Source: an uncultured Candidatus Saccharibacteria bacterium
GTDB taxonomy: Bacteria; Patescibacteriota; Minisyncoccia; Phycocordibacterales; UBA9973
Direction of reading: 5' to 3'
DNA length: 64,000 nucleotides
NCBI GenBank assembly: GCA_964571085.1
Contig: CAZMZT010000002.1
Location: forward strand, 2,784-66,783
Shown here: positions 1,821 through 46,541 of the stretch, piece by piece
How positions within the stretch are numbered: position 1 is the first letter of the stretch
Layout of the letters: each line of letters opens with the position of its first letter
Position numbers and translations under genes: made by a program
The notes under the pieces: model-generated
What the model was told of the DNA's origin: nothing
What the model saw: the letters and a program-made list of their open reading frames with translations, nothing else
The model's database searches: none

Positions 1821-1894
1821 TGCCGATTCGTCTAATGGTAGGACACATCCCTCTGGAGGATGGTATTGGGGTTCGAGTCCCTGATCGGCAGCCA
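1821..1894 (+). tRNA. tRNA-Gln (anticodon CUG), 74 nt with encoded CCA
   Basis: Cloverleaf folded by hand: acceptor TGCCGAT/ATCGGCA (7 bp); D-stem GTCT/GGAC; anticodon stem CATCC/GGATG with loop CTCTGGA (U33, CUG at positions 34-36); T-arm TGGGG-TTCGAGT-CCCTG; discriminator G73 plus CCA. The U1:A72 pair and G73 are known tRNA-Gln identity elements. Confidence 0.7.
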
Positions 1895-1906: not shown

Positions 1907-2043
1907 TCAAAGATAGCTAGTAAAAGATAACTATACTGTAAATTGCATACCTGCTGAGAGCAGTATTCAGAACAAAAAGCACTTCCGATACGGAGGTGTT
2001 TTTTGTTGTTTTATATTACAACAAAGTATGCTATAATCTTTTT

Positions 2044-2250
2044 ATGAAAGATGATGCCAAAAAGTTGGGAGAAAATCTCAAAAAACTTAGGATCAAAAAA
2101 GATATTAGCCAAATAGAACTCGCCAGAATATTAGGCGTTGATCGATCTTTTGTGAGCAATATCGAAAACGGAAAGAATAATCCGACTCTTTCAACCATTA
2201 CTAGCTTAGCCAAGGCGTTAGGTGTTTCAACTAACGAACTTTTAAAATAA
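2044..2250 (+). CDS. XRE-family HTH regulator positioned like a restriction-modification controller (C) protein
   Basis: 69 aa: ...ISQIELARILGVDRSFVSNIENGKNNPTLSTITSLAKALGV.... Its stop is 1 nt before the start of the helicase/nuclease gene. Confidence 0.65.
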   Translation: MKDDAKKLGENLKKLRIKKDISQIELARILGVDRSFVSNIENGKNNPTLSTITSLAKALGVSTNELLK

Positions 2251-2251
2251 T

Positions 2252-5200
2252 ATGTCGTCATCAATAACAAACACCGGTGATAATACGCTTTCGTCAAACT
2301 TAAAGAGCATTTTGCCTAATTGTGACAAGGTAGATGCTTTGGTTGGATATTTTTACTTTTCTGGTTTTCGAGATTTACATCATGAGCTAAAAGACAAGCA
2401 GATCAGAATTTTAGTAGGAATGGATATCGATAAGAAAATACTTGATAGAGTTTCCACTCTTAAGGATTTAAATTTGGATTCATATACAACTGACACAAAG
2501 ACATCTTCTCGATCTATTGCAAAAGATGACTATATAGAAAACTTTTCAAGAATTTTCAACGATACTGATTTTTTCGATAATGATGAATCACAGCAAGCTT
2601 TTGAGATTTTTTTAGACAAAATTAAGGATGGAAGTTTGCAAATCAAAAAGACTGCACAAGCAAATCACTCAAAGTTCTATATTTTGCATAATAAACCTGA
2701 ATTCTCAACAAATGGAATCACACCAGGAATTGTTATTGAGGGTTCAAGTAATCTAACTTTTTCAGGATTAAAAGGACAAGGAGAACACAACCGTATTTTA
2801 ATGGAAAAACATTATTACGAGGATGATGTTAAACGTTTTGAATCTGTATGGGCTGATCCAGATAACATAGTTATTACTGATCTTGATTCAGCAGAGACAT
2901 TCATAAAAGAAGTAAAAGAAAAGATTTGGCTGTATGCTTTACCAAACCCACTCTTGATGTACTACAAAGTGCTCAATGAATATTTTGCTGTAACTGAAAT
3001 CGAAAACATGAAAACCCCAAAGCATATCACTGGGGGTAAATTTTCTGATCTTAAATACCAAAAGGATGCAATTAATTTAGGGATAGATCGTATTAAGAAA
3101 TTTGGCGGTGTGATTATTGCCGACGTGGTGGGTCTAGGAAAAAGTATTATTGCTTCTGCAATTGCTCACAACCTGGGCTATAAGACTATCATTATTGCAC
3201 CCCCTCACCTTGAAAGTCAGTGGAAAGATTACACAGCAGAGTTTGATTTTAAGGGTCACATCTATTCAACTGGAAAAATTGAAGAAGCATTACAACGACA
3301 CGGTAATGATGAAAGTAAGCTTTTGATAATTCTTGATGAAGCACACAAGCACCGAAATGAGGATACTGATAACTATAAGGTTTTACACAGACTTTGTGCT
3401 GGTAACTATGTAATGGCATTGTCTGCCACTCCTTTCAATAATGATCCAAAAGATATTTACGCACTAATTAAATTATTTAGTACCCCAGGACAATCAACTA
3501 TTAGAACAGTTGAAAATCTAAGTATGTCTTTCCATATGCTTTTCAAGCGATATAAAGCAGTTCGAAGAGATCTACGAAAGAACACAAAAGATGAGGGTGA
3601 TAATTCTGAAATTAAAATCGAACTACATTCAATCGCAGATGAATTGAGAAAAATGATTGAACCTTTGATTATTCGAAGATCTCGTCTTGATCTTGAAGAA
3701 ATAGAAGAATATAAGGATGACTTAAAGGCTCAAGGTGTTGCTTTTGCAAAAGTGAAAGATCCACAGCTTTTGGAATATGATCTTGGTGACATGTTTGATA
3801 TTTACGTTAAGACTCTTGAAAAAATTGCTCCAGAAGATAGAAGCACTAGTTTTATTGGTGCTAGATATAAACCAGCTTCATATATAAATCAAGGATCAAA
3901 ATTCCTTGAAAAACTTATTGAACAAGACGACGAAGACGGTATGTCTGCCGAAGAAAAACTTCAAAGAATTACACAAGCTCAAAGCAACCTTGCTCGATTC
4001 ATGAGAAGACTTCTTGTTCGTCGTTTTGAAAGTTCTGTTGGTGCTTTTAAATTATCATTAAGAAATATGATCACTTCTTCTGAAGCGATGCTTGATTGGT
4101 ATGAGAATCGACAGGAAGTTCCAATATTTAAAAAAGGTGTCTTGCCTGATTCTGAATATTTAAGTGAACTAGATGAAAAAGAATTAGAAGATACATTAAA
4201 TAAACTTGAAGATAAGGGTCTTATTAGAATTCCACTAAGCGAATTACAACCACAATTTGGTGACCACTTGAAACACGATATTGCTCTCCTCAAAGAGATT
4301 GATTCTGAATGGTCTGATAAAAATAGTGATCCAAAGTTTGAATTCTTTAAACAAAAGATTTCTCAATCATTAGCAGAAAATCCAAACAGAAAAATTGTCG
4401 TGTTTACAGAATTTTCTGATACTGCAAACTATGTATTCCAAAAACTACAAAAAGACGGCTTTGATCGTGTATTTAAGTATAGTTCAGAAGATGCTTCAGA
4501 TGAAAATAAGAGAATAATTAGATCAAACTTTGATGCAGGTCTTGAAGAATCAAAACAATCAAATGACTTCGATATTATTATTGCTACAGATGCAATTTCT
4601 GAAGGGTTCAACTTACACCGAGCAGGAGCAATCATCAACTATGATATTCCATACAACCCAACTCGTGTAATTCAACGTGTAGGACGTATTAACCGTATCA
4701 ACAGAAAAGTCTTTGACGAATTGTATATTTACAACTTTTTCCCAACACTTACTGGTGAATTAGAAACAAGAACAAAGGCAATCTCAACTTTGAAAATGGA
4801 TCTTATCCATACTCTTTTAGGTGAAGATACAAAGACTCTTACATCAGAAGAAGATTTGAAAAACTATTTTGCAAAACAGTACAAGGAAGAAAATAGTAAA
4901 AATGAAAGTCTATCCTGGGACGCACCATATCGAAATGCTTGGCTCAAGATTAAAGATGACAAGAAAATAATGGAGCAAATATCTCGAATTCCACACCGTT
5001 CAAGAATTGCTCGAAAAACAAAAGATATCAGTGGCGTAGTCGCTTTTGCAAAGAAAAGTGGAAACTATGTATTTGCTTTTGGAAAGACACCTGAAACTGT
5101 CGAAATCGTATCTCCTCAAGTAGCTCTTCCTTTGTTTAATCAAGTAATTGACTCAGAAGAATCACTACAAACAACAGTAAACTTTGATCCTATTTATAGA

Positions 5201-5545
5201 ATGGCAAAGGAACATATATTCAAAGACAATACAAAGGCCTCTGTTGATGGTGGTCGAAAACAAGATGCACTTAATCGAGTTAAGTTGCTTGGTGAATTAT
5301 ATCCTCAAGCAAAAGATCTTTGTTTGGACATAATAAGAGCAATAAAAGATCTTGACGCTCTTCCAAATGGTGTGCTTAAGGAGATTGTAGAACTTCGTAT
5401 TGATAAAACTAATCCAGAAAAAGCATATCTTGAACTCAAAGAACTTATTCCAAGCAAGTATATTGAAAGTATCTTTGAAACAGCAGATCGAGCTAATGAT
5501 GACGGTAAACTCATTGTTCTGTCTGAAGAATTAATCGCACTATGA
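2252..5545 (+). CDS. PLD-family nuclease domain fused to an SNF2/SF2 helicase (DEAH-box ATPase); the restriction/translocase-like subunit of a two-gene RM-like module
   Basis: The N-terminus has HSKFYILHN...GSSNLTFSG, a PLD-like HxK...GSxN motif. The helicase motifs are: I, VGLGKSIIAS; II, ILDEAHKHRN; III, LSATPFNN; VI, QRVGRINRI. The ORF is 1097 aa and shares a 4-nt overlap (ATGA) with the downstream methyltransferase. Confidence 0.75.
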   Translation: MSSSITNTGDNTLSSNLKSILPNCDKVDALVGYFYFSGFRDLHHELKDKQIRILVGMDIDKKILDRVSTLKDLNLDSYTTDTKTSSRSIAKDDYIENFSRIFNDTDFFDNDESQQAFEIFLDKIKDGSLQIKKTAQANHSKFYILHNKPEFSTNGITPGIVIEGSSNLTFSGLKGQGEHNRILMEKHYYEDDVKRFESVWADPDNIVITDLDSAETFIKEVKEKIWLYALPNPLLMYYKVLNEYFAVTEIENMKTPKHITGGKFSDLKYQKDAINLGIDRIKKFGGVIIADVVGLGKSIIASAIAHNLGYKTIIIAPPHLESQWKDYTAEFDFKGHIYSTGKIEEALQRHGNDESKLLIILDEAHKHRNEDTDNYKVLHRLCAGNYVMALSATPFNNDPKDIYALIKLFSTPGQSTIRTVENLSMSFHMLFKRYKAVRRDLRKNTKDEGDNSEIKIELHSIADELRKMIEPLIIRRSRLDLEEIEEYKDDLKAQGVAFAKVKDPQLLEYDLGDMFDIYVKTLEKIAPEDRSTSFIGARYKPASYINQGSKFLEKLIEQDDEDGMSAEEKLQRITQAQSNLARFMRRLLVRRFESSVGAFKLSLRNMITSSEAMLDWYENRQEVPIFKKGVLPDSEYLSELDEKELEDTLNKLEDKGLIRIPLSELQPQFGDHLKHDIALLKEIDSEWSDKNSDPKFEFFKQKISQSLAENPNRKIVVFTEFSDTANYVFQKLQKDGFDRVFKYSSEDASDENKRIIRSNFDAGLEESKQSNDFDIIIATDAISEGFNLHRAGAIINYDIPYNPTRVIQRVGRINRINRKVFDELYIYNFFPTLTGELETRTKAISTLKMDLIHTLLGEDTKTLTSEEDLKNYFAKQYKEENSKNESLSWDAPYRNAWLKIKDDKKIMEQISRIPHRSRIARKTKDISGVVAFAKKSGNYVFAFGKTPETVEIVSPQVALPLFNQVIDSEESLQTTVNFDPIYRMAKEHIFKDNTKASVDGGRKQDALNRVKLLGELYPQAKDLCLDIIRAIKDLDALPNGVLKEIVELRIDKTNPEKAYLELKELIPSKYIESIFETADRANDDGKLIVLSEELIAL

Positions 5546-8500
5546 AATTAAACGAAAAATACAATCCAGAATCTTTTGTTAATTTCATTCAAGATTTTCT
5601 TCCTGAAGATTTTAAATTAAGAGAAGAAGATATTGTAATTAACAAAGATAGATATAAAGAGATAACCAAAGCAAAGATTTTGGGTTTTTGTGAATCACTT
5701 GATTTGCATGTTTTGGAAATGGATCATACTCATGATAAAGATCCACGAGTAGCTATTGCGACGGATGCTTTTAAAATTTTGGCAGATCACTGGATCCACA
5801 GGGCTTTAGTTATTTTCAAGAGTAATGATTCTGATAATTATCGCTTTTCGTACCTCACGATAACTCTAGATCTCAATGATAAAAATAAAGTTATTAAAAA
5901 ATACTCTAATGCACGACGGTACTCTTTTTATCTAGGAAGTAGTGCAAAAGTAAGAACTCCAGAACAGCAACTTATTAAGAAAGGAAAGATTAAAGATGTA
6001 GATGACTTACTCAACCGTTTCTCCGTTGAGGTTGTAAACAAGCAATTTTATCTAGAAGTTGCAAAATTCTTTGATGAGCTTGTTTCTATAGAAGATCAAA
6101 ATCTTATTCTTCCTGGAGTGTCTGAGACAGATATAAATACTCGCAAGAGCTTTGCTGTTCGCCTTATTGGACGAGCAATGTTTTGTTGGTTCTTAAAGCA
6201 AAAGAAGTCAGATAACGGTCAGCTTGTTCCCGATGAAATCTTATCTTCAAAAGTTGTGTCAGATAATTATTATCATAATGTACTGGAACCTCTGTTCTTT
6301 GGAGTTTTGAATACTAGTATTGATGCTCGTGATATACGAACTGAACTTTTTGATAAAGTACCATACCTAAACGGTGGTCTCTTTAATCCTCAAACTGATG
6401 ATTATTATGAACTCGACCGTGGTACATTTGCTTCGAAATATATCAATACCCTCAAAATAAGTGATAAATGGTTTAAAGAATTTTTTGAGCTTCTTGAAAC
6501 ATACAATTTTACTATTGATGAAAACACGGTATTTGATCAAGAGCTTTCAGTTGATCCTGAAATGCTTGGTCGTATTTTTGAAAATCTCTTGGCTGAAATT
6601 AACCCAGAAACTGGAAGCAGTGAACGAAAGCGAACAGGAAGTTTTTATACTCCAAGACAGATTGTTGAATATATGGTTGATCAGTCTTTGATTGAATACT
6701 TTAAAACCAAAACAGATATTGAAGACAAGAAACTAAACGCCCTGGTTAGTTACGATTTAACTGACGATACTGAGTATCCTCTAGAACAAAAAGAAAAAGA
6801 GCAAATTATTAACGCGATAGAATCACTTAAAATCCTTGATCCTGCTTGTGGGTCAGGAGCATATCCTATCGGAGCACTTCAAAAGATTGTTTATATTCTG
6901 CAACAAGTAGATCCAGAGTGTACTCTTTGGCTTGATAAGAAACTTCAAGGTGTTCCTGATTTATACAAACAAAAGATAATCAACGAAGTAAAGCAAAACC
7001 CATTTGATTACACACGAAAACTGGATGTAATAAAAAACTCTATCTTTGGAGTAGATATTCAACCAATTGCGGTAGATGTATCTCGTCTGCGATGCTTTTT
7101 GACCTTGGTTGTTGAATCTGAAATTGATGATAATAAACCAAATCGTGGGATAGAACCACTTCCAAACTTGGACTTTAAATTCGTATGTGCGAATAGTTTA
7201 GTTCCTGCCCCAGAACAAGAAAAAACACAAGATCATTCATTATTTGGTGATGAGTTTCAAGATAAACTTTCGGTTGCTGTTGATGCCTACTTTTCTTCTT
7301 CAGGTGAAAATAAAAGAAATGCGAATAATGAAATCCATAAACTGATTGATAATAAAGTTAGGGAAAAATTAGCTCATCTAACTGGTCTTGTTTCTTATAA
7401 TGGAGATAAAAAAATGGAAGATATTCTAGCAAAAATGAATAAGAAGCAAATTGATAAGCATTCTAGAATATTAATCTTGTGGTCTAGTTATAAAAATATC
7501 TTCACAAATAAACCAGTGGATTTCTTTGACCCTCATTATTTTTTTCCTAGTGTTAAAAATGGATTCGATATTATTATTGCTAATCCACCATACGTAAGTA
7601 TTAATCAAATATCAAAAAACAAAGATTCCTTTACCTCTTACCTAAAAAGTGGAGATGCATCTTTGGGTAATTATTTAGGCATAAATTTACACAGCACTCC
7701 GATGTCTAGAAAAAAATATCCGCCGAAGCCTAATTTATACGCATTCTTTTTTGTAATGGCAAAAAAATTATGCACTAGTAATGGGATAATATCTTTCATT
7801 GTCCCGAAAGGGGTTCTAACAGCTAAAGATTTAGATACACTCAGATATTTATTCTTATCTAAAATGCAGCTTTTCTTACTTACTTCATTCAAAGAGGGTG
7901 TATTTAATCATAGTGAGACATCTAGTGGAAAGATTGCCACAAGTAGTTTGTTGGTTTTTTTAAAAAATACGACTATCGATAGCAACCATAAAATCAATAT
8001 ATCGAATGTAACAATTGGAGAATTGGGCAACGATGTATCTTCAAAAATTGACTCCAATATCCTTTTAGAGAATATAGATAATTGGAATTTAATATCAATG
8101 TCTGCTGAACAGTTATCTATACTAGCAAAATATAATAAAGGTAAGGATTTAAGTATTTATTATAATCATGAATCGGAAAGAGAGTCGATTCATAAATTTT
8201 ATTTTGATGTAGGTTTTACCCTAGATAAAAATAAAATAATCAAGGAGGAACCAATAAATCATTCTGAATACTATAGACTTTTTGAGTTTAAGGGAATTAA
8301 AACATACCGTCTTGAAACTAAAGATTATTATCCAAAAAATAAAAATTATATTGCACTTACTAAAAATAGCCAAGGTTATATAGTTCTAGATCAACAATAT
8401 AAAATTATTTGGAGTGTTAAGAACCCATCTGCTTTTGGTTTTACGGATGAAGAAGTTATATTTCCAATGGGTAAAGCCGCTATAATTGCTAGTAATGATA

Positions 8501-8814
8501 AAAATGAAATATTATTTTTACTTTCTATTTTAAATTCTAAAATTACTTGGTTTATTTTAACCATATTATTAAAACACGAGGGCGAAAAAGATATGCTAGT
8601 TCCAATTTCGTCAATAAAAAATTATATTAGAATACCAGATATTAAAAAAGAGCAAAAAAATGAAATTATAAAAATTTCTAATGAAATTACACAGTATAAA
8701 ATAAAAAATGATGAAAAGATGTCTGTAGAGCTTGAGAAAAAGATAGACGATTTGATATTAGATTATTTTGGTTATACTGAAGCTGAAAAAGAAATTATAA
8801 GAAGCTCTAACTAA
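5542..8814 (+). CDS. Eco57I-like gamma-class N6-adenine DNA methyltransferase with a long AT-rich C-terminal tail (target-recognition-like; ~1090 aa)
   Basis: The motifs are: X, TGSFYTPRQIVEYMVD; I, ILDPACGSGAYPIGAL; IV, FDIIIANPPYV. The X-I-IV order indicates gamma class. The ~450-aa C-terminal tail sits in very AT-rich DNA. Confidence 0.8.
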   Translation: MKLNEKYNPESFVNFIQDFLPEDFKLREEDIVINKDRYKEITKAKILGFCESLDLHVLEMDHTHDKDPRVAIATDAFKILADHWIHRALVIFKSNDSDNYRFSYLTITLDLNDKNKVIKKYSNARRYSFYLGSSAKVRTPEQQLIKKGKIKDVDDLLNRFSVEVVNKQFYLEVAKFFDELVSIEDQNLILPGVSETDINTRKSFAVRLIGRAMFCWFLKQKKSDNGQLVPDEILSSKVVSDNYYHNVLEPLFFGVLNTSIDARDIRTELFDKVPYLNGGLFNPQTDDYYELDRGTFASKYINTLKISDKWFKEFFELLETYNFTIDENTVFDQELSVDPEMLGRIFENLLAEINPETGSSERKRTGSFYTPRQIVEYMVDQSLIEYFKTKTDIEDKKLNALVSYDLTDDTEYPLEQKEKEQIINAIESLKILDPACGSGAYPIGALQKIVYILQQVDPECTLWLDKKLQGVPDLYKQKIINEVKQNPFDYTRKLDVIKNSIFGVDIQPIAVDVSRLRCFLTLVVESEIDDNKPNRGIEPLPNLDFKFVCANSLVPAPEQEKTQDHSLFGDEFQDKLSVAVDAYFSSSGENKRNANNEIHKLIDNKVREKLAHLTGLVSYNGDKKMEDILAKMNKKQIDKHSRILILWSSYKNIFTNKPVDFFDPHYFFPSVKNGFDIIIANPPYVSINQISKNKDSFTSYLKSGDASLGNYLGINLHSTPMSRKKYPPKPNLYAFFFVMAKKLCTSNGIISFIVPKGVLTAKDLDTLRYLFLSKMQLFLLTSFKEGVFNHSETSSGKIATSSLLVFLKNTTIDSNHKINISNVTIGELGNDVSSKIDSNILLENIDNWNLISMSAEQLSILAKYNKGKDLSIYYNHESERESIHKFYFDVGFTLDKNKIIKEEPINHSEYYRLFEFKGIKTYRLETKDYYPKNKNYIALTKNSQGYIVLDQQYKIIWSVKNPSAFGFTDEEVIFPMGKAAIIASNDKNEILFLLSILNSKITWFILTILLKHEGEKDMLVPISSIKNYIRIPDIKKEQKNEIIKISNEITQYKIKNDEKMSVELEKKIDDLILDYFGYTEAEKEIIRSSN

Positions 8815-10126
8815 GAGATATTATTTTATTCTTCAATATAATTTTACTCTTAAAACAAGTTAGCAATTCTCGCTTCTCTTCAACTAATCCGTCTTTTAAA
8901 ATAAATTTGGCGTAGTCTCTGATGTCTACGTCTTTTATTTGTATCTGTTGTTTCGTATTCAAGACAGATTGATTAAATCTTTTTATTCTTTCCACCTCAT
9001 ATTTAATCTTTTCTCTCATGCCAATCTCATTGATATTTACTTGATCAATAAGCTTTTCGAATTGCTGTATTAGTTCGATTTCGTTTATATAACCACACTT
9101 ACAGTTCTTATCTTTCGATCTGGTGCATCCATAGTAGATGTGTCTATTTACTGATCCGTCTTTTAGCTTTTTAAACTTTTCATCTGCACATATACCAGAT
9201 CCACAAAGCCCACAGGTCATCATTTTTGTAAAAGCAAATTCTTTTGGTTCTTGAGTTCGTAATGCTTGGCTTTTAACTTGTTCTTGAACCAATTCAAAAA
9301 GTTCTTTATTGATTATTGGTTCATGTCTACCTGTATAAAAGTTTCCGCTTTTTCGTGGATATTCAAAAACTCCATAATAAAATGGATTTTGAAGTATGAG
9401 ATAAATATTACTAAGGGTGAGACCCTTGTTTCCACTTCTAGTTTTAAAATTCAGATCAAATTTAAGCCAGTGAAAAAGCTTTCTACCAGACCACTTTTCG
9501 TAGGCTACTTTTTCAAACATTTGTTTTACTATTGGTGCTCGTTCTGGATCTATGACTACTTCGCATTTTTTGTCCATTCGCTTTTCATTGAGATACCCAA
9601 CAACAGCAGGACCTGGGCGAAGTCCCATTTCACATCTTGTTCGCAATCCTCGTTTTACGTTAATACTTTTATTATCGTTCTCGAGTTTAGCTTGTGAACA
9701 TAGAATCATCAAAAGAAATTTCTCGTTTGGAGAATTTTTGAAATGTTGCCCATATGTTCTAATCTCAAGAATTTTTGTCTCGTCCATAAGATCAACTACT
9801 GAACCAAGATCACCAGCGTTTCTTGATAGACGATCTGGTGCCCAAGTCAGTATTCCGTTATATCTACCTCGACGTATATCCTCCAAGACTTCTCTAAATA
9901 CTGGTCGTTGTCCAGATTCTTTAGCTGAATGAGATTCACGCCTAATATCTACGACGGTTAAGCCGTCACGATCGGCTATTGCAAGCATTTCTTTAACCTG
10001 GGATTCGATAGACAGGGCTTGCTTTTCGTCTGATTCGGTTGATTTTCGAGCATACAGGACATACCGAATCTTGGTTTTTGGTACCTCTGTTCTAACCCCC
10101 AAATTGCTTATATATTGCGTCTCCAT
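8807..10126 (-). CDS. Large serine recombinase (integrase)
   Basis: The N-terminus IRYVLYARKSTESDEKQALSIESQ is a resolvase-type catalytic motif. The size (439 aa), the recombinase domain and a Cys-rich zinc ribbon (CGLCG...C...C..C) follow. Confidence 0.8.
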   Translation of the reverse strand: METQYISNLGVRTEVPKTKIRYVLYARKSTESDEKQALSIESQVKEMLAIADRDGLTVVDIRRESHSAKESGQRPVFREVLEDIRRGRYNGILTWAPDRLSRNAGDLGSVVDLMDETKILEIRTYGQHFKNSPNEKFLLMILCSQAKLENDNKSINVKRGLRTRCEMGLRPGPAVVGYLNEKRMDKKCEVVIDPERAPIVKQMFEKVAYEKWSGRKLFHWLKFDLNFKTRSGNKGLTLSNIYLILQNPFYYGVFEYPRKSGNFYTGRHEPIINKELFELVQEQVKSQALRTQEPKEFAFTKMMTCGLCGSGICADEKFKKLKDGSVNRHIYYGCTRSKDKNCKCGYINEIELIQQFEKLIDQVNINEIGMREKIKYEVERIKRFNQSVLNTKQQIQIKDVDIRDYAKFILKDGLVEEKRELLTCFKSKIILKNKIISLS

Positions 10127-10198
10127 ATTATATTAATGACGCAACTTGAGCGTTTTGCTAAGTCTATGCAGAACTAGTGAAATATTGCATACTCGCGA

Positions 10199-11695
10199 CT
10201 ACTTTTTTTGATCCATATCTACATAATCTCTAAAGTACAGAGGTTCATCATCTCCCATCCAGTACATAAGCCATGTAGATTCTCCAGAGTGTTTATCCAT
10301 CGTTGAGTTAATCAAGAGAGAAAATGCGTCTGCTAAGTCGTCATGTTTTTCTACTCCAAATCCAACAAGTTGCTCGATAAGTCTTTCACACCCTTGTCTC
10401 GGGAATAAAATTTTTGCTGATTTTATTGCAGTTGAAGTAAGGGCAAGTCGTGTCCGCTTGTCTCCTTTGGGTTTGATTGCAGTTGCCTTAACTCCATGAT
10501 GTTCAAGCATTTGCGGTAAAGCTTCCTGATATGCCACGCTTTCAACAAATAACTCATCAGAACTTCTTGTAAGTAAAGTATTGCGAATATCTTTCATGAG
10601 ATCCACCTGTGCAGGAAAATTAAGTTTCTTTGCAATAGGGTTAGGTAGGATGTAGATTCGCAATTTTTCACGGCGTGAATATATGTGAGCGAATACCACG
10701 GCAGTATCATCGGCAGTTTCTGACGCTGATATAGCAAGATCAACTCCTGCATAAGTACCACGATATCCTCGATGTTTTTCTCCTGGTAGTTCGTCATAAA
10801 ATTGAATCCATTCAGGGTAAATAACCTGATCGTCACTTGGAATGATGCGGAGTAAGTATTCCCGTTGCCATGAAATTTCACTAGTAACTTTTAGTTTCTC
10901 GTCTTCTAGATCTTTTTCTGTTGCATATTTTCCAGACCACAAGCACACACCATTTCTATCAATCAATGGATACTCTTTGAATATTCCTTTTGCTTTACCT
11001 TTAGCAATCTCGTCTTTGATACGCATTAAGAGCGAGTCCTCATGAAGTAAGTTTCCAACAATAATTAGTCGAGTATTTCTATCTCCAGCAGGGATAACTT
11101 CACCACGGAGCCAGTTATAGGTCTTTTCTCGACCCTCACGAGTTTTAGCTGATTGCACATCTTCAACATCGTCACAGATTATTAAGTCTGGGCGGTGTTC
11201 ATTGTGGCGAATACCACGAATACTTTGCTCTGCAGAAGCCACGGTGATTCTTGCTCCATGCTTTTTGAATACAAGAGAGAATGAACCCCATTCATCACTC
11301 TCTTCTTGGAATGGTCCAAGATCCTTTTTGAGAACATCGTTACCCTCAAGTTCTGTGCGGATATTCATCATGTGTTGTTTTGCCTGTGCTCGTGTTTGGC
11401 AGAAAATGATACAGAATTTCTTTTGTTGTTTTCCAAGGATTGCCCAGATTGGGTAAGCAGTCGTCACCATTGTTGATTTTCCAGAACCTCGAAATGCGAC
11501 CACATACAAGTTTTCAGTAGTGCTTTTTTCTAGGTTATGAATAATCTCTTTTTGAAAGTCTGCTGTTTCGTACTTCACATAGTGTGCATAGTAGAAGTGG
11601 AAGAAATACAAGAAACTGTCTTTTGTAATCGATGTTCGCACTGAACGATCTTTTATCATCGTATTAACCAGTGCTTTTGGAATTATTTTAGTCAT
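10199..11695 (-). CDS. Phage terminase large subunit (ATPase + nuclease)
   Basis: Walker A is at ...VAFRGSGKSTMV.... The C-terminal acidic nuclease-like region is ...GVDLAIS...DDTAVVFAH.... The size (498 aa) and its position after a small-terminase-like gene fit a large terminase. Confidence 0.6.
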   Translation of the reverse strand: MTKIIPKALVNTMIKDRSVRTSITKDSFLYFFHFYYAHYVKYETADFQKEIIHNLEKSTTENLYVVAFRGSGKSTMVTTAYPIWAILGKQQKKFCIIFCQTRAQAKQHMMNIRTELEGNDVLKKDLGPFQEESDEWGSFSLVFKKHGARITVASAEQSIRGIRHNEHRPDLIICDDVEDVQSAKTREGREKTYNWLRGEVIPAGDRNTRLIIVGNLLHEDSLLMRIKDEIAKGKAKGIFKEYPLIDRNGVCLWSGKYATEKDLEDEKLKVTSEISWQREYLLRIIPSDDQVIYPEWIQFYDELPGEKHRGYRGTYAGVDLAISASETADDTAVVFAHIYSRREKLRIYILPNPIAKKLNFPAQVDLMKDIRNTLLTRSSDELFVESVAYQEALPQMLEHHGVKATAIKPKGDKRTRLALTSTAIKSAKILFPRQGCERLIEQLVGFGVEKHDDLADAFSLLINSTMDKHSGESTWLMYWMGDDEPLYFRDYVDMDQKK

Positions 11696-11697
11696 AA

Positions 11698-12105
11698 TTA
11701 TTTTTTACGATTAATGTTTTTAATAGATTTCGACTTGGTAATTTTTGCTAGCTTGAGAGCTTGCTTTACAATTTTTGCCTGTGAGGGTGTCAGCTCCTCA
11801 TTGTCGTCTTTAGTGGTAATCTCAAGTTTGTTTTTGTAATTATCATTTCGATGACGAAGCCAGAAACTAATCGCAGGATAGTTTTTCTCTTTGATAAGGG
11901 TCAGCAGTTGGCTTTCACTCATGTCATTTACCAATGCGACACCCTCAGAAAGTGCAATATCCATTTTCTTGAGAAAATCTTTGTCTTCTTTTCGCCACCG
12001 ATAGATACTGTTTCGAGATAATCCTGTCTTCTCACATGCAACCTGAACAATTGGTACTTTTCTCAATTCTTCTAAGAACTGATCCTGAAATTTATTCTTT
12101 TTCAT
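11698..12105 (-). CDS. Terminase small subunit-like HTH protein
   Basis: 135 aa with an N-terminal HTH (...TGLSRNSIYRWRKED...). It sits immediately upstream of and is co-oriented with the large terminase. Confidence 0.45.
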   Translation of the reverse strand: MKKNKFQDQFLEELRKVPIVQVACEKTGLSRNSIYRWRKEDKDFLKKMDIALSEGVALVNDMSESQLLTLIKEKNYPAISFWLRHRNDNYKNKLEITTKDDNEELTPSQAKIVKQALKLAKITKSKSIKNINRKK

Positions 12106-13369
12106 AGAAGTTATTAATTACTTGAGCTTTGTGACCAGTCAGCTTTTCATATCGACGAATTGCTAAATCACAAAACACAGGTTCTATCTCTAGGGAATAG
12201 ACCTTTCGACCTAATTGTTCCGCACAGATCATGGTGCTAGCAGATCCAGAGAAGGCGTCAAAAATGATGTCTCCTGGCTTGGTGCAACGCATAATAAACT
12301 TATGGTGCAGTTCAGGATTTTTACTTGTCGCATGTTCCATTTGATTTGCAGGTAATCGTTTAGTTGCCCAAATGTTCGAGATATCTTCCAGAAGTTGATT
12401 ACCAGTTCCATAATCTTTGTTTTGAACTTCATTGAGATTCTTTACCAAATCAGAAATATACGGAGACCCCGTTGTTCCATATACGCAATATTCAAGGCAT
12501 TTATTAAACGCTACGGCAGGTGTCGGCGAAGCATTGTTTTTAATCCAGACATTGAGCCGTCTGTTTTTAACTCCATGTTCCATATAGAGTGTTTGAAATA
12601 CCCACACCCACGCTTCATCGCACCAGAAAGCCACATGTGCATCTTTCGTCGATATAGCGAGTGAAGATTTAAGAACCTTGCGGATAAATTCTTTGTATTC
12701 TTCAGGTGATTGATTATCGTCAAATGTACCTCCGTAGTTGGATTTATTACCAACCCCTTTGTCATAGGAGAGCCCGATATTAAAAGGTGGGTCATTGTAT
12801 ATGGCGGTAGCTTTATCATTTCCAAATAGCTTAGTAACCGCATTCATATCGGTTGAACTAGCACACAATAACTTGTGACCACCCATAACAATAAGATCAC
12901 CAGGCTTTGTTTGTGGTGTTTTGATTTTCTTTAATTCTTTTTCAACATCGAATTTGTCATCCTTGGTATCTTTTTCTTCGTCCCAAAACTTAACTAATTC
13001 TTTTTCGTTGAATCCAGCGAACTGCAAAAGCTCCAGGTCAAAAGACTTAAGCTTTTCAAAATCCCATTCGCCATCGTTGATATTGCTTTCAATAGCAATC
13101 TTGCGACGCTCGTCATCTGATAGTTTGCGATCAGGAATTAATACGTTTACCTGCCTGATACCAAGCTGTATCAAAGCAGTTTTTCTTTGATTGCCTGAAA
13201 TAATCGTATTGTCCGTATCAATAACGATTACACTATGAAAACCACTTTGAATGATTTTCTCTTTTAATTTTTCCATAGCGACCCGTGAGATTTTTCTTGG
13301 GTTTTCTTTCCAAGGGAGTAGGTCTTTGACCTCTCGAACTCCTGTTGTCCATGAAAGTTTTTTATTCAT
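12092..13369 (-). CDS. ParB-like nuclease domain fused to a beta-class DNA (N6A/N4C) methyltransferase
   Basis: The N-terminal ParB/Srx-like region is ...VIVIDTDNTIISGNQRKTALIQLG.... MTase motif IV (IYNDPPFN) precedes motif I (DIIFDAFSGSASTMICAEQLGRK). This is the beta-class order and is typical of phage orphan methyltransferases next to terminase genes. Confidence 0.7.
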   Translation of the reverse strand: MNKKLSWTTGVREVKDLLPWKENPRKISRVAMEKLKEKIIQSGFHSVIVIDTDNTIISGNQRKTALIQLGIRQVNVLIPDRKLSDDERRKIAIESNINDGEWDFEKLKSFDLELLQFAGFNEKELVKFWDEEKDTKDDKFDVEKELKKIKTPQTKPGDLIVMGGHKLLCASSTDMNAVTKLFGNDKATAIYNDPPFNIGLSYDKGVGNKSNYGGTFDDNQSPEEYKEFIRKVLKSSLAISTKDAHVAFWCDEAWVWVFQTLYMEHGVKNRRLNVWIKNNASPTPAVAFNKCLEYCVYGTTGSPYISDLVKNLNEVQNKDYGTGNQLLEDISNIWATKRLPANQMEHATSKNPELHHKFIMRCTKPGDIIFDAFSGSASTMICAEQLGRKVYSLEIEPVFCDLAIRRYEKLTGHKAQVINNFYEKE

Positions 13370-13542
13370 AGAGTTTTTATTTGATTACTTATAAATTTGT
13401 AGATGACTAATCTACTAACTCTATGAAATCAAAAAGGTACATGGTCATGTAATTGTCATAAAATTGAGTTGCATAAAGAAAAAACGCCTATTTAAAGGCG
13501 ATTTTTCAAAGTTATCCACTCAACTTGGTGTCAACTTAGGAA

Positions 13543-14175
13543 TTATTCTTTTTCTATGTGGATTTTTGGATTGATACGATACCCAGATCCTTTCTTTCCT
13601 TGAATAAGTTTTGTCTTCTTTGGGAGTCTCAAAGTATTTATTGCGTAATCATTAAAAGTCTGCACCATTTTTGCTACCGCTTGTGATGAAGGGCAGGATA
13701 GTATTCTCTGTAGGTCTTTTGTTTGTACATATGCATCTCGATCAAGTAGTGTTTCAAGTAATTTCTTTCTTTTTCCATTTTCAGTAAGGTCATATGAAAA
13801 TAGTTTGTCGCCCAAGTGTCTGTCGAGCGATCCATTATCTCTATCGTAGATAATCACATTACTGTCTTGGCTTGAAGATAGAAGTCGCTTGTGATTTTTA
13901 TTTAATTCTTGAAGTTCTTCTAAGATGTCATATTCAACAGGGCGACGGAATACTATTTCAGGATATTCTACTGGTTCAAAAAGTTTTACTTGTTCACGGA
14001 CTCGATTCATTTGCTCAATAATCGGCTGAGCGACTTTTCTTACATTCTCAATCATTTCTGCATGCCTTTTGCCTAATTCTCGAAACTGAGAAATCTGCCC
14101 CTCGCTTAAAGTAGGGGGATGTATTTTTGCCACTAGTTCACCAACGGTTATTGGTTTTTTCTGCTCATCTGCCAT
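13543..14175 (-). CDS. Hypothetical DNA-binding protein (C-terminal winged-helix-like)
   Basis: 210 aa. The C-terminus ...QGKKGSGYRINP resembles the end of a winged HTH. It is divergent from the LexA-like repressor gene. Confidence 0.3.
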   Translation of the reverse strand: MADEQKKPITVGELVAKIHPPTLSEGQISQFRELGKRHAEMIENVRKVAQPIIEQMNRVREQVKLFEPVEYPEIVFRRPVEYDILEELQELNKNHKRLLSSSQDSNVIIYDRDNGSLDRHLGDKLFSYDLTENGKRKKLLETLLDRDAYVQTKDLQRILSCPSSQAVAKMVQTFNDYAINTLRLPKKTKLIQGKKGSGYRINPKIHIEKE

Positions 14176-14195
14176 GTAGTTATGATAGCAAATAC

Positions 14196-14224
14196 TTGCT
14201 TTTTTGTATAGAGTAATTTATACT
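14196..14224 (+). promoter_or_regulatory. Sigma70-like promoter for the LexA-like repressor gene (TTGCTT, 17-nt spacer, TATACT)
   Basis: The hexamers and spacing are read from the sequence. The ATG at 14234 follows 10 nt after the -10 element. Confidence 0.4.
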
Positions 14225-14233
14225 ATTTATACC

Positions 14234-14851
14234 ATGACTAATAACCTTAGTGACAAAGATAAAAAAGCGTTTGCCCTTATCCGTAACAAGATTGTTCATT
14301 ATGGCAAAAGCCCTACGCTTAGTGAGATTAATGAGGTTACAGGTGGAGCTTCTCCACGATCTGCGAGCCTTGTAATTAATCGATTAATTGACGCAGGACT
14401 TATAAAGAAAATCGGACGACAACTTATCCTTACTGGATCGCAGAAAACAGCTTCAATAAGTACTATTGATGTTCCTTTGGTTGGTGCTGTGACTTGTGGT
14501 ACTCCTGTTCTTGCCGAAGAAAATATCCAAGCCTTAATTCCTGTATCAACAGGACTAGCTAAAAAGGGTTCAAAATATTTTCTTTTGCGTGCAATTGGAG
14601 ACTCGATGAATCTTGCAGGAATTAATAGCGGTGATCTGCTTCTGATTCGACAGCAAGACACAGCAGAAGACAATGACAAAGTTGTTGCTCTAATAAATGA
14701 CGAAGCAACCGTCAAAGTGTTCAAGAAAGCAAATGGTGCTGTTGTACTTCAACCGAAATCAACAAACAAAGACCATAAGCCGATTATATTAACAGATAAC
14801 TGCATCATACAAGGAGTAGTCGTTGCTGTGCTTCCTGGTGATCTATATTAA
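14234..14851 (+). CDS. LexA/CI-like repressor (N-terminal wHTH + C-terminal S24 peptidase)
   Basis: The C-terminal region ...LRAIGDSMNLAGINSGDLLLIR...VKVFKK... carries the S24 Ser (GDSM) and Lys dyad. The N-terminus is a LexA-type DNA-binding domain. Confidence 0.7.
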   Translation: MTNNLSDKDKKAFALIRNKIVHYGKSPTLSEINEVTGGASPRSASLVINRLIDAGLIKKIGRQLILTGSQKTASISTIDVPLVGAVTCGTPVLAEENIQALIPVSTGLAKKGSKYFLLRAIGDSMNLAGINSGDLLLIRQQDTAEDNDKVVALINDEATVKVFKKANGAVVLQPKSTNKDHKPIILTDNCIIQGVVVAVLPGDLY

Positions 14852-15368: not shown

Positions 15369-16210
15369 TGAATAGTATTTTTTCAAAAAGAATGGCAATT
15401 AAATTAAGTGTTAATTTTTTTGTCTCACTAGGTGTAATAAGTTCGATAATTCAAATTATTACTTCAAGTTATCCAGACCTTATTTCTAATTATAAATGGA
15501 AAGGATGGTTCCTGTCTGTTTTTATTTGTTTGGTCTTTGCTTTTATTAGAGCATGGCCAAAGAGAAGTTTCTCTGAAACTTTTTCAAATCCTGACGTTAG
15601 AATTGGCATTAAGATTGGAAATATATTTGATCAATCTGGTCATCTTGTTATTGGTTTTAGCGACACTTTCGATACAGAAATTGGTGATGTAGTAAGTAAA
15701 GATAGTATGCAAGGTCAGTTTTTAATTTCTATGTATGAAAATAATCAAAATAAACTTGATACTGATCTTGATGCATTACTTAAGAATGAGGAATCTGAAG
15801 AAGATACTACAAAGACGCGTGGTAAAAACAAGAGATATAAGATTGGTACAGTTGTAGCATTGTCTGGTTTAAATAGAAAATTCTTTTGCTGTGCATATAG
15901 TCGTATGGGATCTGATCTTAAGGCAACATCTGACATAAATAACTTGTGGTCTTCATTACAAAATCTCTGGACTAAAATAAGAGTAGAGGGAGAGCAAAAA
16001 ACTATAGTGATGCCAGTTATTGGCACTAACTTAGCTAGAATTCCTGGTATCTCATTTAAATTGCCAATAAATCTTATTCTTCTTTCATTTATTATTAATT
16101 CAAGAGTGGAACCAATATCGAAAGAGTTAGTACTTATTATACGTGAAGAAGATAAGGAGAAAGTTAATTTATTGGAAATTCAAGATTTTCTAAAATCTCT
16201 TCATAACTAA
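15365..16210 (+). CDS. Membrane protein with two N-terminal TM helices and a C-terminal Macro-like (ADP-ribose-binding-like) domain; ThsA-like effector candidate
   Basis: There are two hydrophobic helices in the first ~65 aa. The C-terminal region ...TIVMPVIGTNLARIPG... resembles the Macro-domain IAFPxISTGxxGxP motif. It overlaps the upstream gene by 4 nt. Confidence 0.45.
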   Translation: MMNSIFSKRMAIKLSVNFFVSLGVISSIIQIITSSYPDLISNYKWKGWFLSVFICLVFAFIRAWPKRSFSETFSNPDVRIGIKIGNIFDQSGHLVIGFSDTFDTEIGDVVSKDSMQGQFLISMYENNQNKLDTDLDALLKNEESEEDTTKTRGKNKRYKIGTVVALSGLNRKFFCCAYSRMGSDLKATSDINNLWSSLQNLWTKIRVEGEQKTIVMPVIGTNLARIPGISFKLPINLILLSFIINSRVEPISKELVLIIREEDKEKVNLLEIQDFLKSLHN

Positions 16211-16214
16211 TCTT

Positions 16215-16757
16215 ATGGCTTACAGAAGTGGAACATACATAGCTTTTCATGCAGACGGAGAAAGTAATCCAACTGCCTCTGATATGAAATACTACAACAC
16301 ATTAAAAATGTGGAAAGTTAGAGATGATGACTTTAGTTTTGTTAATAGTCACGAGAAAACAGGAGCTGTAAGAGACTCAAGTAAAAAAGATACTCTACGG
16401 AGATCTTTAATATCGAGAATGAATAATTCTAAAAACCTATTATTAATAATAGGCTCAACAACAAAAAATGATACAGACTGGGTTCCTTTCGAAATTAATT
16501 ACGCTGTAGAAACTTGTAATATTCCAATTATAGTTGCCTATACGGGGTACAATAAAATAATGGCTCCGTCTGAGCTTTCTCATTTGTGGCCAGCCGAATT
16601 GGCTAAGGCAATTAAAAACAAAACAGTCGGTATTATTCATGTTCCGTTTAAAAAAGAACCCATAGCAGATGCAATCTCTCAATTTGATATGAATAATCAT
16701 CCTAAAACATCCCTTAATTATTACACTGCAGAAACTTATATTAATTGGGGTTTATAA
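16215..16757 (+). CDS. DUF1863/MTH538 TIR-like domain protein (ThsB-like), paralog 2
   Basis: The motifs GTYIAFHADGE...MKYY, ...NSKNLLLIIGSTTKND...FEINYA...IPIIVAY are collinear with those of 14856..15368. Confidence 0.55.
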   Translation: MAYRSGTYIAFHADGESNPTASDMKYYNTLKMWKVRDDDFSFVNSHEKTGAVRDSSKKDTLRRSLISRMNNSKNLLLIIGSTTKNDTDWVPFEINYAVETCNIPIIVAYTGYNKIMAPSELSHLWPAELAKAIKNKTVGIIHVPFKKEPIADAISQFDMNNHPKTSLNYYTAETYINWGL

Positions 16758-16988
16758 ATAAAATTACACTAATCTGTAACTTTTATACTCAAACCTGTGT
16801 CACTTTTGTCACTTTTTATGAACAAGGAAGATAAAAGAAATCCTAAAAATTGGACTAAAGAAGAGACCGATAGAGTGGTCGCAGTATTTCAATGGCTATT
16901 GGAGCAAGATAAAAAGCAGAATCCAGATCGGTATAAAAAACCTACTGCTCAAAGACCGTCGAAATGATAGAATAAACTTATTAAAAAT

Positions 16989-17050
16989 GTCCTTACGGGG
17001 CTTGACCCACCACGGTTCTGGCTCAAGGACGCCAGCAAACTTGAGCTAGC
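16989..17050. repeat. Element-end repeat R1 (~50-bp family repeat plus the 12-bp att-like core ACTTGAGCTAGC at 17039..17050)
   Basis: GTCCTTACGGGGCTTGACCCACCACGGTTCTGGCTCAAGGACGCCAGCAAACTTGAGCTAGC differs from R2 at about 9 of 48 positions. The last 12 nt are identical to the tRNA 3' flank. Confidence 0.6.
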
Positions 17051-17129
17051 ACGAGATGCTTATAAATTGAGCTTTCGAATTAGCAAAAGATCTATACAGT
17101 TATTGAAGAAGCCGTAGGCTAATCCAGAC

Positions 17130-17165
17130 AAAAAACACTTTCAAAAATGAAAGTGTTTTTTGTTG
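17130..17165. terminator. Rho-independent, bidirectional-type terminator (AACACTTTCAAAAATGAAAGTGTT followed by T-run)
   Basis: A perfect 9-bp stem is flanked by an A-run and a T-run. Confidence 0.55.
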
Positions 17166-17208
17166 TTGACTTCTAAAACCATATACCCTATACTATAGGG
17201 TATATGGT
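17166..17208 (+). promoter_or_regulatory. Promoter (TTGACT, 17-nt spacer, TATACT) overlapped by a perfect 31-bp palindrome ACCATATACCCTATACTATAGGGTATATGGT; CsoR-type operator
   Basis: The palindrome spans 17178..17208. It contains ATACCC...GGGTAT half-sites like known CsoR operators, and it covers the -10 element and the csoR start codon. Confidence 0.6.
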
Positions 17209-17491: not shown

Positions 17492-17529
17492 ATTTTTAGT
17501 GTTTTATTATTAAATTTATATAAAAAATT

Positions 17530-18093: not shown

Positions 18094-18107
18094 TATAAAA
18101 TCCCTAT

Positions 18108-20378: not shown

Positions 20379-20379
20379 T

Positions 20380-21387: not shown

Positions 21388-21394
21388 TTATCAT

Positions 21395-46535: not shown

Positions 46536-46541
46536 AAAATT

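Follow-up and report, generated by a model that had tools for sequence, protein, structure and literature searches.

The 64,000-nucleotide (nt) stretch of DNA analyzed here, called the window below, comes from an uncultured Candidatus Saccharibacteria bacterium (contig CAZMZT010000002.1 of GenBank assembly GCA_964571085.1). Near its left end are three co-oriented open reading frames (ORFs) that encode a small helix-turn-helix (HTH) protein, a protein in which a phospholipase D (PLD)-type nuclease is fused to a superfamily 2 (SF2) helicase of the Swi2/Snf2 type (called the helicase protein here), and an N6-adenine methyltransferase (MTase). An earlier annotation, made by a model from the letters alone (the original prediction), had described these genes as a restriction-modification (R-M)-like operon, and its coordinates, its gene junctions, and all of the motifs that it named were confirmed by ORF, motif, and Pfam checks. 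The ATG of the helicase gene begins after a 1-nt gap from the stop codon of the HTH gene, and the helicase and MTase genes overlap by the 4 nt ATGA (5542 to 5545). Because the lengths of the helicase and MTase ORFs match those of more than 100 full-length homologues, and because the gene pair is kept across phyla, these ORFs are not chance ones. The features of the locus are given in Table 1.

Table 1. Features of the helicase-MTase locus, with positions in the window, amino acid (aa) extents, and the basis of each assignment.
Feature	Position (nt)	Strand	Size or extent	Basis or remark
tRNA-Gln(CTG) gene	1821-1894	+		ARAGORN
Terminator-like hairpin	1971-2007	+		17-pair stem followed by a T-run (hairpin scan)
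Palindrome TTGTTGT-N8-ACAACAA, candidate operator (C-box)	2003-2024	+		Overlaps the -35 position
Putative extended -10 element TGcTATAAT	2029-2037	+		6 nt upstream of ATG; function predicted
XRE/HTH_3 controller (C protein) ORF	2044-2250	+	68 aa	Stop codon TAA at 2248-2250; Pfam HTH_3, 3e-19; PADLOC Control_protein, 5e-15
PLD/SNF2 (helicase protein) ORF	2252-5545	+	1097 aa	
PLD/HKD nuclease domain	2252-2926	+	aa 1-225	Pfam PLDc_2 at aa 48-200
Swi2/Snf2-type SF2 ATPase core (motifs I, II, III, VI)	3047-4861	+	aa 266-870	Pfam SNF2-rel_dom, ResIII, Helicase_C
Conserved C-terminal region, beta-sheet plus helices	4862-5545	+	aa 871-1097	AlphaFold2 (AF2) model
MTase ORF	5542-8814	+	1090 aa	
N-terminal domain, alpha-beta-beta-beta-alpha-beta	5542-6021	+	aa 1-160	AF2 model
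Helical spacer, Type IIG-like	6022-6531	+	aa 161-330	PDLC03601 aligns from aa 157; weak MmeI_hel and DUF7814 matches
Gamma-class N6-adenine MTase core	6532-7911	+	aa 331-790	Pfam Eco57I, 1.5e-22; N6_Mtase
Target-recognition domain (TRD) plus C-terminal helices	7912-8814	+	aa 791-1090	Hypervariability; TaqI_C here in most homologues
Large serine recombinase gene	8807-10126	-		Pfam Resolvase, Recombinase, Zn_ribbon_recom

A scan of homologue loci, with one genome per species, gave 22 loci. The closest homologues were in metagenome-assembled genomes (MAGs) of the Patescibacteria, or candidate phyla radiation (CPR): Paceibacterota, Moranbacteria, Nomurabacteria, Roizmanbacteria, and some labelled Saccharibacteria. 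Across these differently labelled lineages the helicases were 67 to 96% identical. The MTase gene was 3' of the helicase gene in each of the 17 related loci for which downstream DNA was available (16 from the CPR plus one from Nitrospira), and the 4-nt overlap found in the window was present in 15 of the 16 CPR loci; the remaining one (L026) had a 3-nt spacer. In the Nitrospira locus, in which the helicase is 47 to 49% identical, the longest MTase ORF starts about 0.7 kb after the helicase stop codon. When ORFs within 10 kb on either side were clustered for 23 loci, two families were universal, the helicase and the MTase. No DUF499, DUF3780, DrmA, DrmB, PglZ, BrxC, or other recurrent partner was found within 10 kb in these 23 loci, and DrmA, DrmB, PglZ, BrxC, and DUF499 were also absent from the window ORFs that were scanned (not every ORF was). 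Contigs of identical size suggest that more than 30 helicase and MTase homologues are on the same contigs. These results show that the two genes form an obligate, translationally coupled pair, and the operon of the original prediction stood up in this respect. Judged by gene content and motif conservation, the pair is a real and conserved R-M-type module that is almost certainly functional, and we think it probable that it acts as an ATP-dependent R-M system consisting of two proteins and an optional controller.

The pair was adjacent also in a MAG labelled 'Firmicutes' and in a Bdellovibrionales MAG, and more distant versions of it had additional genes. A Parabacteroides distasonis plasmid (43% identity) carries, in order, an HTH gene, a Schlafen-like gene, the SNF2 gene, and the MTase gene. 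In Prevotella nigrescens (L033; NZ_CP082843.1), an HTH gene abuts the helicase gene, as it does in the window, and the MTase gene follows; downstream, at 16020 to 20357, are two inverted partial Eco57I-type MTase genes, a gene for an ATP-binding protein, and a gene for an Mpi-family master invertase. This array looks like a phase-variable TRD shufflon of this type of system, which agrees with the programmed inversions of the pair described in PMC9881135. On Synechocystis pSYSX (L031; NC_005232.1), where the identity is 26%, a small ORF and a VapC toxin gene, making up a toxin-antitoxin pair, are between the HKD-SNF2 gene and the MTase gene, slr6050 (12484 to 13117). Two Thermaceae plasmids (L024, 2828 to 10369; L025, 3587 to 10372) encode a 744- to 787-aa Eco57I-type MTase, then a 327- to 412-aa protein, and then the HKD-SNF2 protein, an arrangement that may be an M plus S plus R split of the same system. 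Accessory genes were also seen directly 5' of the helicase gene in three loci (L009, 7563 to 8936; L023, 5439 to 6983; L011, 1049 to 1540). A Schlafen/AlbA_2 plus HATPase_c_4 accessory was present in one CPR locus and in Parabacteroides, and a stand-alone EVE protein, a modified-base reader, in another CPR locus; Schlafen/AlbA_2 and EVE accessories have been reported adjoining BREX and BR systems.

The helicase protein has a sole HKD-type motif (HSK at aa 139 to 141 with GSSN at aa 164 to 167), and its ATPase motifs are GLGKS (aa 294), DEAH (aa 362), SAT (aa 391), and QRVGRINR (aa 808). In an alignment of 43 homologues the catalytic residues were invariant, including H139, K141, G164 to N167, and the ATPase motifs, and the same HKD residues are retained in the 26%-identical Synechocystis homologue. 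The best Foldseek matches of the helicase core were RapA, Chd1, and ISWI. Similarity to SauUSI, which the MANTIS paper had led us to expect, was found neither by sequence search nor among the top 50 Foldseek matches. The C-terminal region (aa 871 to 1097) had no match to a Pfam family; its mean identity across homologues was 71%, and we consider it a candidate docking surface for the MTase. The helicase family comprises 877 representative clusters (50% identity, E<=1e-30), at least 150 of them full length. Among the best 150, lengths were mostly about 1,050 to 1,150 aa, with the shorter members being partial, and none was a helicase-MTase fusion of ~2,100 aa. A search of phage collections gave one distant helicase, in Erysipelothrix phi1605, where the context is different and includes Type III mod and res genes.

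The MTase motifs FYTP (aa 368), DPACGSGA (aa 433), and NPPY (aa 681) were invariant in 48 homologues. A profile of the MTase family aligned over aa 672 to 1059, which is the NPPY lobe plus the TRD, with CamA (the top MTase match), M.BseCI, and PglX/BrxX, all of which are monomeric, short-site enzymes. Further Foldseek or profile matches of the MTase core were to BpuSI and M.TaqI, and the family profile also matched MmeI; LlaBIII was not among the profile matches at E<=0.1.

The two halves of the MTase have diverged very differently. Mean identity to the window protein was 76 to 84% over aa 1 to 500, 29.5% in the NPPY lobe, and 16.7% in the TRD. The NPPY lobe and TRD thus diverge while the helicases remain 71 to 96% identical, and even at loci with 96%-identical helicases the TRDs are just 25 to 35% identical. 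Clustering at 90% identity put 55 members in the helicase cluster but only 3 in that of the MTase, and the GC content is 0.26 in the TRD DNA versus 0.33 in the rest of the MTase gene. By these comparisons the MTase is a mosaic of a constant N-terminal half and a hypervariable half containing the catalytic lobe and the TRD. The identities, the low GC content of the TRD, and the cluster sizes together are a signature of R-M specificity swapping. They also support the suggestion, made in the original prediction, that the C-terminal tail behaves as a TRD, as does the alignment of the profile with the catalytic-lobe and TRD parts of CamA, M.BseCI, and PglX. In the window we found no TRD shufflon repeats or inverted cassettes, and no homopolymer or simple-sequence-repeat tracts of the kind that cause phase variation. 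There is a 26-nt direct repeat, 92% identical, with one copy in helicase lobe 2 (4561 to 4586) and the other just before NPPY in the MTase gene (7557 to 7582). Its product is '(D/G)FDIIIA' in both genes, and it is probably a coincidence or convergent codon use.

The N-terminal domain of the MTase occupies the slot of the nuclease domain in Type IIG enzymes, which raises the alternative that the MTase protein works alone as a Type IIG enzyme, cutting with its own N-terminal domain as MmeI and Eco57I do, and that the PLD-SNF2 protein is an accessory or back-up effector. The domains follow one another as in Type IIG enzymes (N-terminal domain, helical spacer, gamma MTase, TRD); among PADLOC families, REase_MTase_IIG fits the MTase best (PDLC03601; 223 bits, aa 157 to 700); and another model, PDLC03628, which is derived from REBASE, is essentially Slr6050. 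The topology of the domain, which the AF2 model gives with predicted local distance difference test (pLDDT) values of mostly 80 to 93 (dips at aa 61 to 70 and 111 to 120), resembles PD-(D/E)xK folds, and a weak HSDR_N similarity in Slr6050 was noted by Hagemann et al. However, aa 1 to 200 of the MTase matched no nuclease family, the N-terminal domain had no Pfam match, the Type IIG model aligns with the MTase from aa 157 onward alone, and profile searches gave no match of the MTase to the N-terminal domains of MmeI or BpuSI. No D...(D/E)xK motif was conserved across homologues. Residue 61, in the slot of the would-be ExK lysine, varies among D, K, E, T, and S, and homologues outside the CPR, in Parabacteroides and Nitrospira, lack K93; the residues that are kept are E59, H62, D67, and R69. 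We therefore read the domain as a non-catalytic, or at least non-canonical, module, which may be a docking surface for the helicase protein. Self-sufficiency of the MTase also leaves its strict coupling to a nuclease-bearing partner unexplained, and we regard this alternative as unlikely.

Under the two-protein R-M reading, the HTH protein would be a regulator of the operon. Its nearest solved structures are the true C proteins C.AhdI (1y7y; 1.2e-9) and C.BclI (2b5a; 1.4e-8), and C.Esp1396I matches too, so the assignment as a C protein in the original prediction appears sound. The TGcTATAAT element is the best promoter-like site between 1700 and 9000 (10 of 12 matches plus the TG extension) and is conserved in the alignment of loci. 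The HTH transcript is predicted to be near-leaderless, and the upstream hairpin is predicted to insulate the module from the tRNA-Gln gene. The palindrome occurs once in the window, where 0.01 copies were expected by chance. It was found once each, at the same place, in nine loci that have a C gene, and in none of the 25 other loci examined. In two loci (L019 and L015) the arms are retained and the spacer differs; in a third (L010) the C protein is 62% identical and the palindrome is different. The palindrome thus appears to covary with the C protein and is a candidate operator. About half of the CPR loci have a C gene, and because it is missing from the others, the HTH protein is an optional regulator and not a defining part of the system. 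The original prediction had proposed a neighborhood survey of whether the two large genes are always paired and linked to a C protein; the pairing held, but the linkage did not.

Like the C-controlled Type II operons AhdI, BclI, and Esp1396I, the locus has an HTH_3 protein encoded immediately 5' of the nuclease gene in the same orientation, a palindromic operator-like site at the protein's own promoter, and a near-leaderless start. It differs from them in having one palindrome with 7-nt arms and an 8-nt spacer, where paired C-boxes are usual, and in having the methylase gene within the operon, 3' of the nuclease gene.

The module begins directly 3' of the tRNA-Gln gene, which therefore probably marks the insertion point of an island. 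A tRNA-Gln gene also precedes the module in L001, L006, and L015, and a tRNA-Glu gene does so in L019, whereas the upstream flanks differ between genomes. The convergent gene for the large serine recombinase shares 8 nt with the end of the MTase gene; it is the mobility gene of the island and is context, not part of the R-M system. It is at the same position in L001, L006, and L030 and nearby in L005, L008, L012, and L022. The recombinase gene is the start of a phage- or satellite-like block (8807 to 14851) that also encodes TerL (phrog_38), a TerS-like protein, a ParB::N6/N4-MTase fusion (phrog_498), and a 210-aa protein. These genes are on the minus strand except for a divergent, plus-strand gene for a LexA/CI-like repressor, and the block has no capsid, portal, or tail genes. 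It accompanies the R-M pair in L001, L006, and L030, and parts of it (TerL and/or the ParB-MTase) are present in another order in L002, L005, L022, and L026. The order tRNA-Gln, C gene, helicase gene, MTase gene, recombinase gene, and TerL gene is repeated in L001 and L006 behind different upstream genes, and one IMG/VR contig carries the helicase-MTase pair plus the recombinase. The shared gene order behind different upstream genes and the IMG/VR contig indicate that the module is cargo of a tRNA-associated mobile island.

Across the module the GC content is 0.26 to 0.36, compared with about 0.41 where the window has housekeeping genes, and the low-GC island probably reaches about 24 kb. It includes metal-resistance cargo (18108 to 22259: a P-type ATPase, an HMA plus DsbD_2 protein, and a cupredoxin-like protein), 3' of which is a minus-strand fragment of a second serine recombinase that has Zn_ribbon_recom alone. 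The right border of the island was not defined by a search for att duplications: no second copy of the tRNA 3' end or of the 27-mer ACTTGAGCTAGCTCAAAGATAGCTAGT was found in the window. The DUF1801 genes that flank the low-GC region were considered as duplication marks and rejected, since they are not close paralogues. The 27-mer itself (1895 to 1921) is directly 3' of the tRNA-Gln gene and is kept in L001, L006, L017, L021, and L022. The genes upstream of the tRNA differ among the loci that share it, and it is possibly an island end or an att remnant. The ORFs scanned beyond about 30 kb were housekeeping genes (aminoacyl-tRNA synthetases, SHMT, HtrA, and similar). One of these, at 46506 to 50006, encodes a 1166-aa class I aminoacyl-tRNA synthetase of the Ile/Val/Leu type (tRNA-synt_1, Anticodon_1, DUF5915), in which aa 511 to 668 are an inserted but complete histidine-phosphatase domain (His_Phos_1, 6e-31).

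A mobile, defense-island-like context with a GC content below that of the host core speaks for the R-M reading. The same context could mean that the module is mainly a selfish addiction cassette that stabilizes the island, or that the helicase protein is a SauUSI-like, modification-dependent nuclease next to an unrelated methylase. The module is always on mobile or variable DNA near recombinases, TerL or TerS genes, and tRNA sites; the slr6050 gene could not be deleted; and SauUSI has the same PLD-helicase logic, albeit with methylated DNA as its target. However, addiction and defense are not mutually exclusive in R-M systems, and the hypervariable TRDs and the shufflons suggest that a specificity that keeps changing against invaders has been selected for. 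The helicase protein has no Pfam match to a TRD-like or modified-base reader domain of its own, and the translational coupling argues that the helicase and MTase act together. We regard this explanation, in either version, as unlikely.

Several known systems share parts with the locus. In MANTIS (Gao_RL, or BR type 2; proteins MtsA to MtsD) the effector also has an N-terminal single-HKD PLD domain fused to an SF2/Snf2-type ATPase, and the logic is the same in that an adenine methylase both marks self DNA and sets the target, with short asymmetric sites being hemimethylated (10.64898/2026.09.23.753747; PMC12839542). But MANTIS has the DUF499 AAA+ loader MtsA and the DUF3780 protein MtsB, neither of which was found in the 23 loci or in the scanned window ORFs, and its methylase, MtsC, is of the alpha class with DPPY and a central TRD, whereas the one here is of the gamma class, Eco57I/PglX-like, with NPPY and a C-terminal TRD. 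The helicase protein aligned with the ~900-aa PLD-helicase antiphage models, which may represent MtsD, over aa 567 to 866 alone (110 bits versus a cutoff of 1100).

The Type ISP enzymes LlaGI and LlaBIII have the same order of modules as the two genes read together: nuclease, SF2 motor, linker, gamma adenine MTase, and TRD. Type ISP enzymes methylate one strand and couple cutting between sites to translocation, and similar behavior would be expected here. They are, however, single polypeptides with an Mrr-type PD-(D/E)xK nuclease, whereas there are two polypeptides here with a PLD/HKD nuclease and a Swi2/Snf2-like motor. The comparison to a split Type ISP enzyme in the original prediction is thus a fair functional analogy but not a class assignment. 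The Type IIG and IIL enzymes (MmeI, Eco57I, BpuSI) likewise have a gamma MTase, a helical spacer, and a C-terminal TRD in one chain, but they have an active N-terminal nuclease motif and need no partner; here the motif is missing and a motor-nuclease gene is always attached. Slr6050, which REBASE lists as Type IIG, is a 26%-identical homologue of the MTase with the same HKD-SNF2 gene upstream and a tentative asymmetric N6-methyladenine (m6A) motif. With Type III systems, which have a beta-class Mod and a Res with a C-terminal PD-(D/E)xK nuclease, the locus, with its gamma MTase and N-terminal PLD, shares the two-subunit logic alone.

PLD nucleases are also coupled to helicase-like ATPases in SauUSI and in CglI/NgoAVII (PMC7913695, PMC5737866). 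SauUSI differs from the helicase protein in having its own TRD and a methylated-DNA target, and CglI in having its PLD fused to a DNA-reading domain and not to a motor. Unlike the system proposed here, neither employs a methylase as a specificity subunit.

The gene inventory overlaps as well with that of class 1 DISARM, which has an SNF2 helicase (DrmD), a PLD protein (DrmC), and an Eco57I-type MTase (DrmMI), and the original prediction had likened the locus to a minimal class 1 DISARM core. As a class assignment, that comparison did not survive: DISARM is defined by DrmA (a helicase with DUF1998) and DrmB, which were absent from the 23 loci and from the scanned ORFs of the 64-kb window, and here the PLD domain is fused to the helicase. 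The best NCBIfam match of the helicase protein was NF038317 (DISARM_DrmD), but at 147 bits, aligned over aa 572 to 922, it was far below the cutoff of 610. For the MTase, the PADLOC DrmMI model gave a partial match of 54 bits, and Type IIG models gave the far higher score of 223 bits. Only one PADLOC model, C3a139, matched across both the HKD and the Snf2 parts (3e-32); DrmD models scored slightly higher on the helicase part. C3a139 was considered as a Gao_RL gene and rejected, since it is the type III CRISPR-associated cluster of Shah et al. 2018.

These partial matches could mean that the two genes are part of a larger system that is already known (class 1 DISARM, BREX, or MANTIS/BR), with the remaining genes elsewhere in the genome. 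The best NCBIfam and PADLOC matches of the helicase protein are to DrmD, BrxH, HmaA, and the 'HKD+Snf2' model, and the MTase has weak matches to DrmMI and PglX. In addition to DrmD, however, PglX (60 versus 500) and phospholipD_antiphage (110 versus 1100) score far under their curated cutoffs, none of the partner genes was found within 10 kb in the 23 loci or among the window ORFs that were scanned, and the pair travels as a unit between unrelated flanks and phyla, all of which makes this explanation very improbable. Least credible of all is that the locus has no defense function, in which case the MTase would act in epigenetic regulation, and the Snf2 protein would be a remodeler or repair factor like RapA that is merely cotranscribed: RapA and chromatin remodelers do top the Foldseek list for the helicase, and CamA is an orphan regulatory methylase, but the invariant HKD, hypervariable TRD, patchy horizontal spread (67 to 96% identity), mobile context, and C-like regulator are R-M hallmarks.

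Judged by its gene content and domains, the locus does not belong to DISARM, MANTIS, or Type ISP and is best called an unnamed two-gene variant in which the effector is MANTIS/SauUSI-like and the gamma methylase is PglX/Type IIG-like. Its parts have been seen before. HKD-SWI2/SNF2 ATPase fusions in bacterial R-M were noted by Iyer and Aravind in 2006 to 2012, according to a passage of PMC3417536 that cites them; Shah et al. (2018) described an 'HKD+Snf2' cluster, C3a139, beside type III CRISPR loci; helicase-MTase adjacency was tabulated in 2023, together with programmed inversions (Milman et al.; PMC9881135); the Synechocystis MTase partner falls under Type IIG in a PADLOC model derived from REBASE; and the four-gene relative MANTIS was dissected in 2026 (10.64898/2026.09.23.753747). 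The description of the locus as an undescribed defense architecture was therefore overstated. In the literature searched, we found no name or experiment for the autonomous two-gene form, and this form is the new part; the system is a compact relative of known ones and not a new kind of defense.

In the mechanism that we propose, the MTase would be the specificity subunit, with its C-terminal TRD reading a short, probably asymmetric site. It would methylate one adenine (m6A) on one strand, so that host DNA would be marked by hemimethylation. The helicase protein would be the restriction subunit, a Swi2/Snf2 double-stranded DNA translocase with half of a PLD active site. Two HKD motifs make up the single active site of PLD nucleases such as Nuc and BfiI. 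Because the active site needs two such motifs and the helicase protein has one, the protein must dimerize, and the dimer could be preformed, as in MtsD and SauUSI, or could form when two motors meet. At an unmethylated site the MTase would form a complex with the motor-nuclease and recruit or license it, probably via its constant N-terminal half; ATP-driven translocation would then carry the nuclease to a second site-bound complex, and cleavage would occur at a distance from the recognition site. The system would likely favor paired sites, probably in inverted orientation, as Type ISP, Type III, and MANTIS do. The 68-aa HTH protein would bind the palindrome at its own promoter and set the expression of the whole C-R-M operon.

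Parts of this scheme have precedents. In MANTIS, cryo-EM showed that the HKD-SF2 protein MtsD forms a dimer that has a single PLD site; restriction there requires the MtsD ATPase and favors inverted sites (10.64898/2026.09.23.753747). In SauUSI, too, the PLD site is formed by dimerization and cutting depends on ATP (PMC7913695, PMC5737866). Indirect support comes from Slr6050, the tentative M.Ssp6803IV, to which the motif GA(m6A)AGGC, methylated on one strand, is tentatively assigned and for which the deletion never fully segregated (PMC6105098). Slr6050 is downstream of a homologue of the HKD-SNF2 gene (E values of 3e-64 for the helicase alignment and 8e-25 for the MTase alignment), and a deletion that does not segregate is the behavior expected if the restriction partner is active. 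In interpreting the failure, the authors did not take the helicase-nuclease gene upstream into account (PMC6105098).

Several observations weigh against the scheme. The AF2 models of both large proteins are mediocre overall (mean pLDDT, 66.6; predicted template modeling score, 0.41 to 0.42), and the PLD part of the helicase model has low confidence. The single MTase sequence gave no match in a search of the PDB, and it was the family profile alone that gave matches. The half of the window MTase with the NPPY lobe and TRD is an uncommon variant. The motif assignment of Slr6050 is tentative, and the apparent essentiality of its gene has other possible causes. The nuclease of MANTIS resisted in vitro reconstitution, and the methylase there needs the AAA+ loader and MtsB (10.64898/2026.09.23.753747); because both are absent here, the analogy may not carry over. 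Finally, the C-R-M order, with M last and translationally coupled, is unusual for C proteins, since methylation gets no head start. Given these points, we put forward only tentatively, and with somewhat less than even confidence, the most specific form of the reading: that this split Type ISP arrangement with a PLD nuclease would represent, as its prototype, a separate and widespread class of ATP-dependent R-M systems that has no name yet, in which a PglX/Type IIG-like gamma methylase that has lost its nuclease directly loads and licenses a dimeric HKD-Snf2 motor-nuclease without an AAA+ loader.

The existence of such a module would not surprise a specialist. Its value is as a minimal model of methylase-guided, motor-driven restriction and in the annotation gap that it exposes. 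With a MANTIS-kind effector and a PglX-like methylase in just two proteins, it would be a much simpler object for biochemical and structural work, and it would let one ask directly whether the methylase alone loads the PLD-Snf2 motor. With the MTase annotated as Type IIG and the helicase passed over, annotation pipelines and predictions of restriction barriers may misassign the nuclease, for example in Synechocystis, Prevotella, and Parabacteroides. If the split Type ISP reading is true, the module would represent the hemimethylation-based defenses (BREX, DISARM, and MANTIS) in their minimal autonomous form and would be the main such system moving horizontally among the CPR on tRNA-targeting serine-recombinase islands. 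Few CPR bacteria carry CRISPR systems, and for these organisms the module may be an important, horizontally spreading barrier.

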